Assembly: GCA_049322255.1 (NCBI GenBank)
Contig: JBMORE010000187.1
Location: 1-50,875, forward strand
Length of the DNA: 50,875 nt
Source: Myxococcota bacterium
GTDB taxonomy: Bacteria; Myxococcota; Myxococcia; Myxococcales; Myxococcaceae
Direction of reading: 5' to 3'
Shown here: one piece after another, positions 3,577-50,875 of the stretch
How the letters are laid out: each line of letters opens with the position of its first letter
Position numbering within the stretch: position 1 is the stretch's first letter
Notes under the pieces: generated by a model
What the model saw: the letters and a program-made list of their open reading frames with translations, nothing else
Told to the model about the DNA's origin: nothing
Databases searched by the model: none
Translations under genes and position numbers: made by a program

Positions 3577-4040
3577 AACCGGTCGCCGACGAATCGCTCA
3601 AGGTGATCGCCGAGAACCGCCGCGCCAAGTTCGACTACGTGGTGGAGGACAGCGTGGAGGCGGGCATCGAGCTGTTGGGCAGCGAGGTGAAGGCCCTGCG
3701 GGAGGGGACGGTCAGCCTCTCCGACGCCTACGCCTACCCCAAGGGGCCGGAGCTGTACCTGCTCAACGCCCACATCGGGGTGTACAAACCCTCGGGAACC
3801 TTCGCCCACGAGCCTACCCGCAGCCGGCGGCTACTGCTCCACCGGGAGGAAATCGACCGTTGGGCGGCGAAGGTGCGCGAGCGGGGTTATTCCATCGTCC
3901 CGCTCATGGTTTACTTCCGCAAGGGGCGGGTGAAGGTCCGTTTAGGGCTGTGCCGCGGTAAGACGCACGAAGATCGCCGTCACACCATCAAGGAGCGGGA
4001 GAGCAAACGCGAGATGGATCGCGCGATGCGGCGAAGGTGA
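3573..4040 (+). CDS. smpB: SsrA-binding protein
   Basis: IAENRRAKFDY, EAGIELLGSEVKALR, R.R.LLLHREEI, GKTHEDRR.TIKERE; ATGA overlap with panC. Confidence 0.96.
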   Translation: MKPVADESLKVIAENRRAKFDYVVEDSVEAGIELLGSEVKALREGTVSLSDAYAYPKGPELYLLNAHIGVYKPSGTFAHEPTRSRRLLLHREEIDRWAAKVRERGYSIVPLMVYFRKGRVKVRLGLCRGKTHEDRRHTIKERESKREMDRAMRRR

Positions 4041-4519
4041 TGGACAAGACGCTTGAAAAAAAAGAGCGCCTGCTCACCGCCCTCGACAAGGGCCTGACCA
4101 TGGTGCACTTGGACGCCCGCCGCGCCGGGGTGCTGGTGCCCTCCCACCTGAAGACCGAGGCGCACCTGCTCTTGAACCTCTCCTACCGCTTCGACCCGCC
4201 GGACTTGTCGGTGGGCGAGTGGGGAATCCGCTCCACGCTCACCTTCTCGGGCAAGCGCTTCACCGTGGCCATTCCCTGGTCGGCGCTCTACGCCATCACC
4301 AGCCATGTCACCAAAGAGTTCTGGATGTACCCCGACGACATGCCGGCGGAGATTCTCGAGGCAGCCAAGTTGACCTCGAAAGTTCCGCTCGAGGACGGGC
4401 CGATGAAGAAAACCCGCGGCTTGTTGCGCGAGGTGGTGGCCGAAAAACCCGCTCCGGACGAGAAGAAGGACGAGCCTCCCAAGCCACGCGGCCGAGGCCA
4501 CCTGCGAGTGGTGAAATGA
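4037..4519 (+). CDS. sspB: ClpXP specificity-enhancing factor SspB family protein
   Basis: VHLDARRAGVLVP, LNLSYRF, TLTFSG...IPWSALYAI; C-terminal ClpX-binding-like tail GHLRVVK. Confidence 0.85.
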   Translation: MMDKTLEKKERLLTALDKGLTMVHLDARRAGVLVPSHLKTEAHLLLNLSYRFDPPDLSVGEWGIRSTLTFSGKRFTVAIPWSALYAITSHVTKEFWMYPDDMPAEILEAAKLTSKVPLEDGPMKKTRGLLREVVAEKPAPDEKKDEPPKPRGRGHLRVVK

Positions 4520-45475: not shown

Positions 45476-47122
45476 CTACTTCGCCCCCGGCTCCGGTTTC
45501 TTCTCCCCCTCCTCCTTCACCGCCTCCTCTTCGCTGACCAAGCGGAACTCGGTGCGGCGATTCTTCGCGCGGCCCAGCGGGGTGGCGTTGTCGGCGATCG
45601 GCTTGTCGAAGCCGAAGCCGGCGCTCTTGAGCCGGTTCTTGGCGATGCCCTTGTTCAGCAGGTAGTTGACCACGGCCTGGGCGCGGCGCTTGGAGAGGTC
45701 GAGGTTGTAGGGGCGGGTGCCGCGGTCGTCGGTGTGGCCCTCGACGAGCACGGGGCCTACCTCGGGGTTGTCGGCGAGCACCTTGTAGACGTCGTCGAGC
45801 ATCTTGAAGGACTGCGGCAGGATGGTGGCTTGAGCGGTTTCGAACTGAATCTGCCCGCGTACACGAATACGTTCGGACTCCAGCTCTACCTCGGGCTCTT
45901 CGGGCACAGGGCAGCCCTCGTTCTCCACCGGGCCGGGCTCGTCGGGGCACTTGTCGACGATGTCGGGCACGCCGTCGCCGTCGCGGTCGGGACAGCCCTC
46001 GAGCTCACCGGGGCCGGGGTCCATCGGGCAGCCGTCTTCGTTGTCGTTCACTCCGTCCTTGTCGTTGTCCGGCTCCGGACAGCCGTCGGAGTCCTCGAAG
46101 CCGTCTTTGTCTTCGGGCACGTCGGGGCAGGCATCGACATGGTCGGCGATACCGTCGCCGTCGCGGTCGTCGAAGGTGAAGTCGTAGCGAACCCCGGCCA
46201 AAAGGCGAAACGCCTCCCGCCCGTAGCCGGTGGTGGTGCCCAGCCCGCGACCCAAGGTGACCTCGGCGCCCCAGTTGCCACGCACTTTGCCGCGCACGCC
46301 CAGAAGCAGCTCCCACGGCGTTTTGAGCGAGTCGGCCTGGTCGAAGGTGAAGGGCCGCTCGGTCGGGGTGACCAGGTGGGTCTCGCCCACGAACTGCACC
46401 TCGGTGAAGCGACTGAACGAGGGGAGGTCGACGATGGCTCCTGCGCCGGCGGTGAACTCGTTGCCGATGAAGAGGTTGATGAACTGGGCGTGGTAGGGGC
46501 GCAGCCGGTAGCCCATGTTGGCGAGCACCCGCACCGGGCCGAAGGCTCGTTCAGCCGCGAGCCTGGGAGCGAAGACGAAACCGGCGTCGCCGATGAAGCT
46601 TTGCGCCGACGGAGCGGGCAGTCGCACCTCGGCCACCGCCGCCAGCCCGAAGAGTGCCTTGGCCGGGTCGAGAATGGACACGCGTGGCAACACTCGCAGC
46701 GAACCGACGCCCAGCGCCGACGGCCCCGCTGTGCGAAAGCCCTGCTGGGCGAGCAAATCGAAGTCGTTCACCTGGGCGAGGGTCAGCGGCAGGTGTGCTC
46801 CCAGCTCCAGCTTGGGGAGCAATTGGTAGCTGCCGAAGAGGTGAAGGTCGGTGCGAAAAGGAACCAGGTCGCCCAGCTTTTCCTGCCCCAGCTTGAGCGC
46901 GAGCATGCCCACGCCCATGTCGAACATCGCGGCGAAGCGGAAGCTCTTCGGCCCGCGGAAGGTGGCGCCTTCGAGGCCCACGCCGCTGTCCATCGCGGTG
47001 GTCTGCTTGACGGGAAAGAGATCGAAACCCTTGCCGAAGGCGTCATGCGTGGCATGGGCCAAGGGGGCCGTCACGAAAACGGCGAGAAGCGTGAGTCGAC
47101 GCGCGGCGTAGGTCGCTGTCAT
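45476..47122 (-). CDS. OmpA-family outer membrane protein (beta-barrel + thrombospondin type 3 repeats + OmpA_C)
   Basis: Signal peptide; DRDGDGI.D..D.CP repeats; VEGHTD, YNLDLSKRRA, GFG..KPI, RAKNRR.EF. Confidence 0.93.
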   Translation of the reverse strand: MTATYAARRLTLLAVFVTAPLAHATHDAFGKGFDLFPVKQTTAMDSGVGLEGATFRGPKSFRFAAMFDMGVGMLALKLGQEKLGDLVPFRTDLHLFGSYQLLPKLELGAHLPLTLAQVNDFDLLAQQGFRTAGPSALGVGSLRVLPRVSILDPAKALFGLAAVAEVRLPAPSAQSFIGDAGFVFAPRLAAERAFGPVRVLANMGYRLRPYHAQFINLFIGNEFTAGAGAIVDLPSFSRFTEVQFVGETHLVTPTERPFTFDQADSLKTPWELLLGVRGKVRGNWGAEVTLGRGLGTTTGYGREAFRLLAGVRYDFTFDDRDGDGIADHVDACPDVPEDKDGFEDSDGCPEPDNDKDGVNDNEDGCPMDPGPGELEGCPDRDGDGVPDIVDKCPDEPGPVENEGCPVPEEPEVELESERIRVRGQIQFETAQATILPQSFKMLDDVYKVLADNPEVGPVLVEGHTDDRGTRPYNLDLSKRRAQAVVNYLLNKGIAKNRLKSAGFGFDKPIADNATPLGRAKNRRTEFRLVSEEEAVKEEGEKKPEPGAK

Positions 47123-47221: not shown

Positions 47222-48763
47222 CTAGTTCTCCATGAAGACCTGTGCGTCTTGGATTCGAATCAGCTGAGGGTGCATCGGCAGTGGCTCGCGCTCGAGGGTT
47301 TTGTCCTTCTTTGTCACTTCGGCGGGCTTCGACGTCGGATAGCGAATGGGCGAGGGTTTCTTGCTCGCCAAGCGGGCCTCGAGGTCCTCGGCGTCTTGGG
47401 TGACGTAGACGAAGTTGAGCTTGGAGGGTGTCAGGTGCCGGGCGGCGGCTTGCTGGAGCGCGTGGGGCGTCATCGTCGCCAGCGCCTGGCGGTAGCCCTC
47501 GAGAAAGCCCGGGGTGCCGTAGAACAGCTCGTCGATGGCCAAGCCCAGCCGCCGCTGGTCGGTCTGCTCCCACAGGCGGGTGTAGCCGATGAGGAAGCCG
47601 CGGGCGGTCTCCATCTGCTCCAGCGGCGGAGGGTTCTTCGTCAGCTCCGTCAAGTAGTGCAGCGCGCCGCGGGTGGCGAAGATCGCGTTGGGCGGCTCCA
47701 CCGGGCGAAGCCAAATGGAGAAGTCCTGCTCGGCACGGGCCACGTTGAAGCTGGGCTGGGTGCCCCAGCCCTCCTGGTGGAAGTGCTCGGCGTAGGCATA
47801 GTCGCCGTAGTTGAGGCCGCGCTTCTCCCGCAGCTCCTGGAAGAGCACCCCGTGGAACTGGCGATGCTCGCCCAGGTAGGAGAGGGCGAAGGCCACCGCG
47901 TAGAAGTCGGGGTCGCCCCGGCGGAGCGGGTACGTGTAGCCCATCGAGACCGCGGTGGAGAGCGTGTTCTTCTTCAAGATGAGCGTGTGCCCCTGCACTC
48001 CGGGCGCGGGAGGTAGCTCCACCCTCGGTGCACCGGTGGCGGGCAGCTTAGCCAAACGCTTCTTCACTTTCGCCTCCAGGGCGGAGTCCACGGCGCCTGC
48101 CAGGCCGATCACCAGGCGGTCTTGCGTGAAGACGCGAGCGGCGTGAGCTTTGACGTCCTCCAAGGTGATTGCTTGCAGCCCCTGCACGGTCCCACCGGGG
48201 AAGTGGCGGTAGGGGTGGTCGGGGTAGAGCAGAGCATCGAGGGCAATCTTTCCCAGCTCCTCGTCGTCTTCGGCGCGCAGGCGGTTCTTCACCGTGTTGA
48301 TCGCATCGGTACGCAGCCGCTCGAGCTCCTTGAGGTCGAAGCGGGGCTCGAGCAAGACGTCGCTGAAGATGTCGAAGAAGCGTTGGAGCCGGTCGGAGTG
48401 CACCCGGCCCACGAAGACGGTCACCTCTTTGTCGGTGGAGGCGTCGAGCTCGGCGGCCATGGGGTAGAGCGCGTCGAGTAGCTGGGCCGAGGAGAGCTTC
48501 TTCGTTCCACCCTCTGCCATCAGTTGCGCGGTGAGCGCGGTGAGGCCCTCCTTGCCCTTGGGGTCGTCGACCGACCCGGCGTGGAAGACCAGCCGGAAGC
48601 TGACGATCGGCTTGTTCTTCACCGGCAACAGCACGGTGGTCATCGGTGGCGGCCGATTCAGCGGGCGATAGGGAACCGGAACGGGTTTGGGAAGGGGTGG
48701 AAGGGTGGCGGCGCAGGAGACGAACACGCCGACGGCGGCGAAGCGCAACGCGACACGGACCAT
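47222..48763 (-). CDS. M16 peptidase, non-catalytic subunit (lipoprotein)
   Basis: Lipobox FVSC; GS..DP.GKEGL..LTA (no HxxEH); LREKRGLNYG R/Y motif. Confidence 0.9.
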   Translation of the reverse strand: MVRVALRFAAVGVFVSCAATLPPLPKPVPVPYRPLNRPPPMTTVLLPVKNKPIVSFRLVFHAGSVDDPKGKEGLTALTAQLMAEGGTKKLSSAQLLDALYPMAAELDASTDKEVTVFVGRVHSDRLQRFFDIFSDVLLEPRFDLKELERLRTDAINTVKNRLRAEDDEELGKIALDALLYPDHPYRHFPGGTVQGLQAITLEDVKAHAARVFTQDRLVIGLAGAVDSALEAKVKKRLAKLPATGAPRVELPPAPGVQGHTLILKKNTLSTAVSMGYTYPLRRGDPDFYAVAFALSYLGEHRQFHGVLFQELREKRGLNYGDYAYAEHFHQEGWGTQPSFNVARAEQDFSIWLRPVEPPNAIFATRGALHYLTELTKNPPPLEQMETARGFLIGYTRLWEQTDQRRLGLAIDELFYGTPGFLEGYRQALATMTPHALQQAAARHLTPSKLNFVYVTQDAEDLEARLASKKPSPIRYPTSKPAEVTKKDKTLEREPLPMHPQLIRIQDAQVFMEN

Positions 48764-50103
48764 CACTTGCCCTCCTTGGCGCTGAAGGTCAGCACGGTGC
48801 GGTTCTGCTCGGTGAGGTGCTTCTGGGCGAAGGCGACCAGCTGCTCGGGCGTCACCTGAGCGATGTTCCGGTAGTGCAGGTCGAGCGCGTTGGGCGCTCC
48901 CAGAATGCCGGCGTACCAGGCGAGCTGGAGAGCCACCTCGTTGGGAGTCTCCAGCGACATCAGGAGGCCGTAGCGCAGGTTGTCCTTCACCGCTTGTACG
49001 CGGTTTTTGTCCACTTTGCCCTTGGCGAGCTCGGCAATCGCCCGGTCCAGGGCCGCACGCACCGTCTCACGGTGGTTCTCCGCCTTGAGGGTGACGGCGA
49101 GGGAGAAGAGCGCAGGGTCGCGGTGCTCCGAAAAGCCTGAGCCGACGCTCTCGGCGAGCTGCTTTTCCAGGACCAGCTCCTTGTGCAGCGGGCTGATGGG
49201 ACCAGTGAGGTAGGCGGCGAGCACGTTTTGAATGGCCCCATCGCTCGTCGCCATCGCCGTCGCTGGGGTGTGCCAAGCATGAATGTGGCGAGGCAAAGTG
49301 GGTGTTTCCCACTGCACTTGGGCGGAGCGGGCCTGGGTCTGTGGCGGCTCGTGAGGAATCTCCACCGTGGCCGCTTTGCCCTTCCATGGTCCGTAGTGCT
49401 TCTTCACCCACTCGATCACCTTTTCGCCGTCGAGCTCTCCCACCACGAAGACGAACGTGTTGTCCGGGGTGTACCAGCGGTGGAAGAACTCCTTCGAGTA
49501 CTCGTAGTATTCGGGCATCTTCTTGATGTCCTCGTAGTAGCCCAGCGTGGTGTGCCCGTAAGGGTGCTTGGTGAAGGCGGTGGCCACGAGCGTCTCCTCA
49601 ATCTTCAACCCCGGGTCGGCGGCGTTCTTGTGGTACTCGCCCAAGACCGCCTTCGCCTCCGTCTGGAAGGTGGGTTCACTGTAGGCAAGGTTGATGAAGC
49701 GATCGGCTTCGAGCTCGATGAGCTTCTCTAAGCCCGAGGTGGGACCGGCCACGTGATAGACGGTCACGTCGTCTGAGGTGAAGGCGTTCTCGTTGAAACC
49801 CAGCTTGCCTAAAGCCGCCTCGCGTACCCCTTCGGGGTGGGTTGGGGTGCCCTTGAACATCATGTGCTCGAAGAAGTGGGCGAAGCCCGAGTGGCCTGCC
49901 TCCACTTCGTTGCGCGAGCCCACCCGCACCACGGTGTAGTAGGCGACCAGGCCCGGGGAGGAAAAGGGCACCCGCACCAGGGTGAGCCCGTTGTCCAACC
50001 GAGTGACTTGAAGCGGGTAGGGGAAGAACGACTTGGCTTTCTGAGCGTGGGCCGGCGTGGCGAGCGTGAAGGCCACCGCCAGGGCGAAGGCAGAGCGGAG
50101 CAT
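48763..50103 (-). CDS. M16 (pitrilysin) peptidase, catalytic subunit, secreted
   Basis: Signal MLRSAFALAVAFTLATPAHA; LDNGL, VGSRNE, GFAHFFEHMMFKGT, NAFT..D.T.Y. Confidence 0.95.
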   Translation of the reverse strand: MLRSAFALAVAFTLATPAHAQKAKSFFPYPLQVTRLDNGLTLVRVPFSSPGLVAYYTVVRVGSRNEVEAGHSGFAHFFEHMMFKGTPTHPEGVREAALGKLGFNENAFTSDDVTVYHVAGPTSGLEKLIELEADRFINLAYSEPTFQTEAKAVLGEYHKNAADPGLKIEETLVATAFTKHPYGHTTLGYYEDIKKMPEYYEYSKEFFHRWYTPDNTFVFVVGELDGEKVIEWVKKHYGPWKGKAATVEIPHEPPQTQARSAQVQWETPTLPRHIHAWHTPATAMATSDGAIQNVLAAYLTGPISPLHKELVLEKQLAESVGSGFSEHRDPALFSLAVTLKAENHRETVRAALDRAIAELAKGKVDKNRVQAVKDNLRYGLLMSLETPNEVALQLAWYAGILGAPNALDLHYRNIAQVTPEQLVAFAQKHLTEQNRTVLTFSAKEGK

Positions 50104-50181
50104 CAAGTAAACCTCAGCCGACCATTTAGCCGGCTGAGGCTCCTTACAGAACCGGACGTGCGGTTTTCCCGCATCCGGCTC
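50102..50181 (-). ncRNA. group II intron catalytic domains V and VI
   Basis: DV GAGCCGGATGCGGGAAAACCGCACGTCCGGTTC (50181-50149; AGC triad, AC bulge); DVI AAGGAGCCTCAGCCGGC..GTCGGCTGAGGTTT-A-CTT then GAT; branch A at 50108. Confidence 0.92.
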
Positions 50182-50875
50182 TTCGGTTGGTGTTTCCGTA
50201 CAGCACGGTGCTCCGAGGTGATGTCAATCAGCTGCTCGCCGTGGGGCGGGAGTGGGAGCGGATTGAAGTGCAGCTTCCGCTCGAACTGCTGCCAACTGAA
50301 GGAGCGTTTCTGGCTCCTGCGGTTGAGCCACTTGAAGAGTGCGCCGATGCAAACGAAGCGGAAGTGACAGAGCTTCGCTTCGTTGAAGCGCACCGCGAAG
50401 TACTCAAAGTGGCCCCTGAGCCGTGCACGTACATCGGCCCAGAGCTGCTTGAGCGGCTTTTTGCTGCGCGTCTTCTTCACCCACTCGGTGAAGGCTTGCA
50501 TGCTGCGGTGGAGCCTCTTCGCGGCCGTCTTGAGCTTCAACAGCCGGCCGCCCTGCTTGTCCCTGCCCCAGTAGAAGTCGAACCCGAGAAACGAGACGAC
50601 CCCTTCGGGGGCCCTGGACGAGAAGGGCACGATGGCACTCTTCGCGATGTTCAGCGACAGCCCGGCCTCTTGCAGTCGGAGTTGCAGCGCCGCCTGAAAG
50701 GACCTGGCCGTTTCCTCGTCGGTGAAGACGAAGACGGCGTCATCGGCATAGCGAACGAATTCCCCGCGACCGGCGTATTCCGCGTCGAACCACCCGTCGA
50801 GGAGATGATGCAGGCAGATGTTGGCCAGCATCGGGCTGACAGGAGAACCCTGAGGGGTGCCACGCTCGGTTTCTG
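50103..50875 (-). CDS. ltrA: group II intron reverse transcriptase/maturase (5'-partial, no endonuclease domain)
   Basis: GTPQGSPVSPMLANI.LH, VRYADD, FLGF, domain X LRGHFEYF...KWLNRRSQ. Confidence 0.93.
   Translation of the reverse strand, partial: ETERGTPQGSPVSPMLANICLHHLLDGWFDAEYAGRGEFVRYADDAVFVFTDEETARSFQAALQLRLQEAGLSLNIAKSAIVPFSSRAPEGVVSFLGFDFYWGRDKQGGRLLKLKTAAKRLHRSMQAFTEWVKKTRSKKPLKQLWADVRARLRGHFEYFAVRFNEAKLCHFRFVCIGALFKWLNRRSQKRSFSWQQFERKLHFNPLPLPPHGEQLIDITSEHRAVRKHQPKSRMRENRTSGSVRSLSRLNGRLRFT

Follow-up and report, generated by a model that had tools for sequence, protein, structure and literature searches.

How is a gene expressed whose start codon is made in part by the last bases of a group II intron? 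The window analyzed here (50,875 nucleotides, the whole of contig C187 of the Myxococcota genome G000; 66% G+C) raises this question at its end, where an intron running off the contig borders directly on an operon for M16 peptidases. The features concerned are the following (with the source of each in brackets):

47222..48763, minus strand: host gene 2, the second M16 subunit (open reading frame; Pfam)
48763..50103, minus strand: host gene 1, an M16 peptidase of 446 aa with a signal-peptide-like N-terminus (open reading frame; Pfam)
50101..50105, minus strand: TGATG, in which the TGA that ends the intron protein (50105-50103) shares its A with the rebuilt ATG (50103-50101) (sequence)
50102..50875, minus strand: group II intron, 3′ part, 774 nt (Rfam; comparison with the intron L026)
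50103..50873, minus strand: reverse transcriptase/maturase frame, 3′ part (open reading frame; Pfam RVT_1; TIGR04416)
50104..50147, minus strand: domain VI hairpin, which is coding too (fold)
50108, minus strand: bulged A, the predicted branch point, 7 nt from the intron end (fold)
50111..50115, minus strand: Shine-Dalgarno (SD)-like GAGGT in the 3′ strand of domain VI, paired, found in the closest subclade only (sequence; fold)
50149..50181, minus strand: domain V, coding in frame for the end of the intron-encoded protein (Rfam; fold)

The element is recognizable as a group II intron by a domain V, a domain VI with a bulged A, an AY 3′ end, and a reverse transcriptase/maturase. The Rfam model RF00029 matched at 50183-50102 (minus strand, 52.6 bits, model positions 1-77), and domain VI folded into one hairpin with a single bulged A (z −6.5; 0/200 shuffles). 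Over 773 nt, the sequence is 89% identical to a full-length intron, L026, and by this comparison the remaining ∼1.15 kb, the 5′ half, lie past the contig end. The intron's last bases are AT (50103-50102) and the next base, 50101, is G, so that an ATG (50103-50101) spans the 3′ splice site predicted between 50102 and 50101. The sequence-only reading of this locus had placed the splice site exactly there, with the branch A 7 nt from the intron end and with GAGGT 7 nt ahead of the ATG, on the 3′ side of the domain VI stem. All of this held: the splice site did not map elsewhere, the fold bulges the A at 50108, and GAGGT is found, paired, at 50115-50111. The intron-encoded protein, with its YADD motif at 50750-50739, has RVT_1 as its sole Pfam domain and TIGR04416 as its best NCBIfam match (being a fragment, it scores under the whole-protein cut-off); a search with Pfam revealed no endonuclease domain, HNH included. 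The protein continues for ∼213 aa past YADD and ends 1 nt short of the intron end. The resulting overlap of its TGA with the host ATG was absent from the earlier reading.

By eye, residues 1-20 of the M16 peptidase resemble a signal peptide, as had been claimed, and at most of 19 orthologue loci the N-terminus likewise looked hydrophobic (also by eye) and began no more than a few codons away, L083 and L085 being different. In frame, one codon upstream of the ATG, stands a TTG. The two M16 genes are joined by a TGATG overlap of their own. An OmpA/TSP3 protein is encoded 100 nt downstream of the pair (45476-47122, minus strand); it is most like myxobacterial TraB (NCBIfam, 202 bits, below the cut-off).

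Insertion sites in the genome and among relatives

Five intron 3′ ends were found in G000 (contigs C187, C73, C76, C101, and C35), all of which join AT to G, each leading into a long coding frame (176-932 aa). Six 5′ ends (C12, C65, C171, C116, C118, and an internal one in C73) begin with GUGYG, as do L026 and L027, and the exon in front of them ends in AT in 6/6 cases. This is the AT|GTGYG junction that had been expected, the C187 copy's own 5′ end lying off the contig. A divergent gene faces four of the five 5′ exons located at contig ends, and that of C118 lies 15 nt past a same-strand stop codon. Synteny paired C65 with C35 and C118 with C76 in 5/5 relatives, and orthologues of the C76 gene aligned from residue 1 in 5/5; for the C101 gene, no synteny partner was found (three loci). 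By elimination, the 5′ exon of the C187 copy is that of C12 or C171, and these candidates are intergenic rather than coding sequence of a longer gene. Synteny of the M16 peptidase yielded no common neighbor in 19 loci with 1.5-kb flanks, and in 14 longer upstream regions no 5′-exon partner for C187 was detected, the matches to C118 and C40 lying away from the junction. The 5′ stub of C12 is identical to L026 over 122 nt, as compared with 89% for the C187 3′ part; as the candidate stubs are of the L026 type, the C187 copy may combine parts of different intron variants. In contigs of four DNA runs, no empty allele was present at 50101, a result that carries no weight; a loose end at 50873 in the DNA-run contigs represents another intron variant and was set aside.

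An intron-less allele for comparison was provided by C55, the right end of which (L209) matches the DNA upstream of the C116 intron over 133/134 identical nt and then continues with AT-G. The ORF entered at the empty site has 68 aa and is followed by a PIN gene. The ATG of this ORF is presumably its start codon, with an in-frame GTG further upstream, and the small gene and the PIN-domain gene are probably a toxin–antitoxin pair. The occurrence of filled and empty alleles in the same assembly suggests recent or ongoing homing. An internally deleted copy in C73 (19996-20838, 842 nt) has kept a single frame from ATG to TGATG (1/3 by chance), and its 3′ end still lies on the ATG of a DEDD/helicase gene. 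Deleted or truncated copies were also seen at L071 (∼3744-4105) and L062 (∼4000-4294), again with the 3′ end on the gene's ATG; the gene following the former we take, by its resemblance, to be TldD-like. In five G000 5′ stubs, the AT|G frame is open over 40-42 codons, a second frame being open as well in three. Other repeats also break the G000 assembly, namely two families starting with CTAG (five and seven contig ends) and one that follows a stem-loop-like sequence (four contig ends).

To place these sites among relatives, 82 loci were examined, namely L026 and L027 together with the 80 best among 131 matches in metagenomes (identity 52-88%). The relatives are non-independent samples, and the permutation tests ignore kinship. 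In a separate protein search, 399 homologues at E 1e-150 or better were found among 8000 scored candidates. The 3′ end was present in 71 of the 82 loci, and 67 of 69 distinct junctions were AT|G, of which two lead into a second intron and a few comprise only 1-2 exon bases. The distinct 5′ exons (n = 58; 52 from relatives and six from G000) ended in AT (47), GT (seven), or otherwise (four), and in the seven GT cases a GTG becomes ATG. Where the 3′ exon comprised at least 150 nt (n = 42), the ATG frame was open over 50 codons or to the end in 34 cases and short in eight, compared with six and 23 open cases for the other two frames. Among 37 downstream proteins scanned, 20 had a Pfam match, the first domain of which began at model position 1-9 in all but one. 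The target genes are unrelated (e.g., symporter, kinase, IspG, Mur ligase, DivIVA, and YacG); intact introns measure 1885-1981 nt, with 444-546 nt from the 5′ end to the enzyme start where measured. It is near certain from these comparisons that initiation codons are the target of the intron, which enters them between AT and G and restores the ATG, as the sequence-only reading had proposed for the single site; the copies, with AT|G at 5/5 3′ ends in G000, are not randomly placed. Because the 5′ junction of the intron recreates the target, copies can stack, and tandem introns were observed in L123 (3′ end at 1576) and L127 (3′ end at 1945), where AT is followed by GTGCG of the second copy. L129, L130, and L144 have an altered EBS1 and occupy non-ATG sites; their upstream frame runs from the intron's first GTG.

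Target recognition and reading frames

Among the 58 5′ exons, T is found at −14 in 28, A at −13 in 40, and T at −9 in 33. A −10 box of the corresponding form, TAnnnT, precedes the AT by 5-8 nt in 27/58 (by exactly 6 nt in 20). Its frequency was 2.2% among flanking ATGs (n = 1839), 0.6% among ATGs (n = 89,160), and 5.5% among putative G000 starts (n = 1339). SD-like words, which precede 31% of putative G000 starts, occurred in 3/58. According to the accessible part of PMC3160421, TAnnnT ∼12 bp upstream is a mark of leaderless genes; the targets are thus mostly predicted gene starts of the leaderless type. With standard sigma-70 geometry, a 6-nt spacer would put position +1 at the A of the start codon and leave a 5′ exon of only 2 nt. 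Of the six G000 exons, two (C65 and C73) have the box at 5-8 nt and two an SD-like word. The box is absent from both C12 and C171 (the latter with an SD-like word), so the leaderless status of the M16 peptidase gene is not established by its candidate exons. A replacement promoter at the 3′ end of the intron was considered and rejected, as TAnnnT occurred there in 1/63.

EBS1 was located in domain I, with L112 and L158, which fell just below the threshold, included by hand. In 52 exon–intron pairs, it could pair with the exon at −1 in 51, at −2 in 45, at −3 in 35 (shuffled mean 24.7), at −4 in 21 (13.0), at −5 in 11 (11.8, i.e., no excess), and at −6 in 21 (14.5). EBS1 covaries with exon positions −1 to −3/−4, and the pairs in which it is switched (L121, L129/L130, and L144) confirm the 5′ splice site. 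In the same 52 pairs, EBS2 pairs at −9, −10, and −11 (z 2.9, 3.8, and 3.5), two off-diagonal cells of this analysis also having z of at least 3. The notion that EBS2 reads the entire −10 box was rejected, as pairing at −12 was at chance (11/52) and the TA at −14/−13 is unpaired. Being unpaired, this TA must presumably be read by protein or through promoter opening, which suggests that the intron enters single-stranded DNA at the open promoter.

At the other end of the intron, TGA or TAA precedes the final T in 65 distinct 3′ ends and closes the YADD frame in 64 of them; in the exception, L173, the frame is open over 384 codons, and a YADD motif was not found. As the pattern used to search for 3′ ends contained T[G/A]A, it is the frame, and not the stop word, that constitutes independent evidence. 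Domain VI was solely 38, 41, 44, or 47 nt long, i.e., it varies in steps of three. In a sister group (37 loci, 32 scored), the enzyme stops before domain V in 31/32, and the target is mostly a different one (junction ATC in 25, ATG in four, others in three).

Upstream of the enzyme, the AT|G frame (exon AT plus intron G) is open across domains I-III in 43/62 introns (28/42 after dereplication), compared with three and none for the other forward frames, none, four, and five for the reverse frames, and 0.45% of shuffles. It is 138-183 codons long and ends at or near the enzyme start. The frame is closed in 14/42 representatives, L027 among them, and eight introns, including both non-ATG variants, are open instead in the frame set by the first GTG of the intron. 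In 56 distinct introns, the upstream frame ends on the GTG of the enzyme (as GTGA) in 12, close upstream in 28 (24 of which stop ∼30 nt before the enzyme start), and early in 16. The GTGA ending is found in 12 of the 13 closest relatives, L026 included, and of the 40 introns in which the frame extends as far as the enzyme region, 28 show no overlap with the enzyme start. Counts by codon position were 969/807/859 for the upstream frame versus 938/462/3685 for the enzyme, and this lack of bias indicates that openness is kept, not a peptide. A functional peptide was rejected on the same ground and for lack of a Pfam match (two tested).

Expression of the host gene

Overlaps such as TGATG and ATGA are signals of termination–reinitiation coupling, as described in the accessible portion of PMC6728339. 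We favor, with a probability of roughly two in three, the reading that the intron belongs to an endonuclease-less lineage inserting at AT|G of mostly leaderless starts, the frames of which would carry ribosomes across the unspliced intron to the host gene in a relay. The relay would begin with an insertion into AT|G or GT|G, after which the terminal AT of the intron restores the ATG. From the host ATG, ribosomes would enter the 138-183-codon frame across domains I-III, which is seen in relatives and presumed for the C187 copy, and which would release them on the enzyme's GTG (GTGA) in the closest subclade and ∼30 nt before the enzyme start in others. The enzyme frame, in the C187 copy as in its relatives, would then lead through domains V and VI to the TGATG or TAATG on the rebuilt ATG. 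Termination–reinitiation at both overlaps would let the intron make its enzyme with the promoter and start of the host, and would keep the host operon translated when no splicing occurs; in the close subclade, the arriving ribosome would unwind GAGG and thereby aid reinitiation. Sites would be chosen by EBS1 (−1 to −3/−4) and EBS2 (−9 to −11), to which the covariation points, and by the −10 box 6 nt upstream, which would place +1 at the A, leave the 2-nt 5′ exon, and permit entry at the open promoter. With such a relay, splicing would be unnecessary for expression of the host; expression of the unspliced host gene is plausible, most likely through translational coupling. Against this reading, translation of the ribozyme should compete with the folding needed for mobility.

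The sequence-only reading had assigned this task to the GAGGT of domain VI, acting as a replacement ribosome-binding site for fresh initiation and switched by opening of its stem. The word lies 7 nt from the ATG, and all five G000 copies have it as GAGG; an SD-like word positioned 5-18 nt upstream of the ATG was present in 16/17 3′ ends at least 72% identical, but in only 3/46 others, and the 43 more distant members without it keep AT|G and the stop-start overlap. As the overlap is nearly universal (64/65) and the SD confined to the closest subclade, the SD is not the general device of the lineage. GAGGT is, furthermore, fully paired (unpaired probability 0.000-0.006) in a hairpin of −28 kcal/mol, for which three test folds gave no alternative, and as it pairs with CCTC of the other strand, it is perhaps merely inherited. 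Neither the replacement signal nor the buried switch was borne out, and we consider fresh initiation at this word quite improbable; at most, it helps reinitiation once a ribosome unwinds the stem.

A host that does need splicing is a less distant, albeit still unlikely, alternative. The frames would then serve only to supply the enzyme and to keep ribosomes on the long precursor, shielding it from polarity or decay, and the ATG would be a by-product of the AY end followed by G. AT is the usual 3′ end of group II introns, 29/32 sister-group ends are AT as well, and EBS1/EBS2 and domain VI, bulged A included, remain intact and covary, which argues that the splicing chemistry is retained. However, this alternative leaves unexplained why, with domain VI varying by threes, the stop codon is invariably placed right on the ATG, and the 2-nt 5′ exon at leaderless targets would likely make exon ligation inefficient. 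It could also be argued that the intron has no preference for starts and inserts at any short EBS match, with only harmless start sites surviving: EBS1 pairing extends over just 3-4 bp, the retargeted L129/L130 variant is found at non-ATG sites, and a long ATG frame is absent in 8/42 3′ exons. Yet selection alone would leave intergenic and SD-led sites too, whereas A occupies −13 in 40/58 exons and SD-led starts are depleted, and the still polymorphic C116/C55 site likewise lies at an ATG; this explanation appears very improbable.

The relay would be a route to a harmless intron without splicing, in which stop codons are avoided and indels come in threes, in domains I-III and in domain VI. In its widest form, the proposal is tentative and falls somewhat short of an even chance: the lineage would be widespread, undescribed, and translationally transparent, homing to leaderless starts (probably via the open promoter bubble), with a 2-nt 5′ exon, three coupled frames (domains I-III, IV, and V-VI), and a rebuilt AUG, such that splicing is not needed and the contest between translation and ribozyme folding sets mobility. 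The lineage would serve as a model of dual coding in structured RNA, of splicing where the exon has 2 nt, and of tools for promoter-directed integration. A literature search found no account of leaderless targeting or of translation through a ribozyme, although Michel 2007 and Simon 2008 may hold more; the accessible parts of PMC3753933, PMC4028801, PMC4424553, and PMC5894124 contain no mention of such an intron design.

Relation to known introns and coupled genes

In a quick tree of 50 proteins, 19 members formed one clade (SH-aLRT 100) apart from the references for classes D, g1, g2, and g3, which were taken from PMC3552965; the lineage is thus set apart from these in a tree holding no CL1 or class E reference. 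L009 and L052 were left out of the tree. Class E is suspected from a C-terminal motif of the intron-encoded protein. As far as PMC3552965 and PMC3753933 describe them in their accessible parts, introns of class E/F type resemble those studied here in having reverse transcriptase and maturase only, a small IIB-like ribozyme, and EBS1/EBS2. A second, unrelated endonuclease-less lineage adjoining apparent gene starts was noticed (L012, L013, L014, L018, L019, and L021), in which a strong SD-like word opens domain VI, the intron ends in ACCAATG, and the enzyme frame extends into domain V in 5/6; in the tree, it stands near Rh.sp.I1. Its likeness to the AT|G lineage is possibly a case of convergence.

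A link to the lineage of the Azotobacter groEL intron, as drawn in the sequence-only reading, found no support. The accessible part of PMC12584367 describes a clade at start and stop codons as IIB1 introns in which 300-700 nt are inserted close to the 5′ end, and its groEL members (Avi.groEL and EcKTE56.groEL; Michel et al, 2007) as encoding a CL1 enzyme with an endonuclease. The introns described here share with these two the insertion in or beside start or stop codons and the replacement of codon letters, which there turns UAA into UAG and here GTG into ATG (seven cases). Unlike that clade as portrayed there, they lack both the endonuclease and the 5′ insertion, measure ∼1.9 kb, reside at many unrelated genes, and would be translated through the ribozyme; a blastn search of E. 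coli genomes with L026 gave no match. Reviews distinguish three target habits of bacterial group II introns, namely homing sites, terminators, and attC (PMC4424553, accessible part), and PMC12584367, as far as accessible, states that the way in which the start/stop-codon clade finds its sites is unknown. Short EBS pairing plus a −10 box at a fixed distance would be a concrete answer.

With group IIC introns, as that same portion of PMC12584367 presents them, the lineage has in common a short EBS1–IBS1 pairing and a target set by a transcription signal; unlike in the terminator-inserting IIC introns, this signal is the promoter and start end of the gene, and EBS2 is present. Its overlap words are identical to the TGATG and ATGA of termination–reinitiation coupling (PMC6728339, accessible portion), and, as in the orf121–tnpA overlap of IS91 (PMC13181058, likewise in part), a mobile element would feed its enzyme via an upstream ORF. 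Unlike in the coupling described in these sources, the frames here overlie a catalytic RNA and would hand the ribosome on to a host gene.
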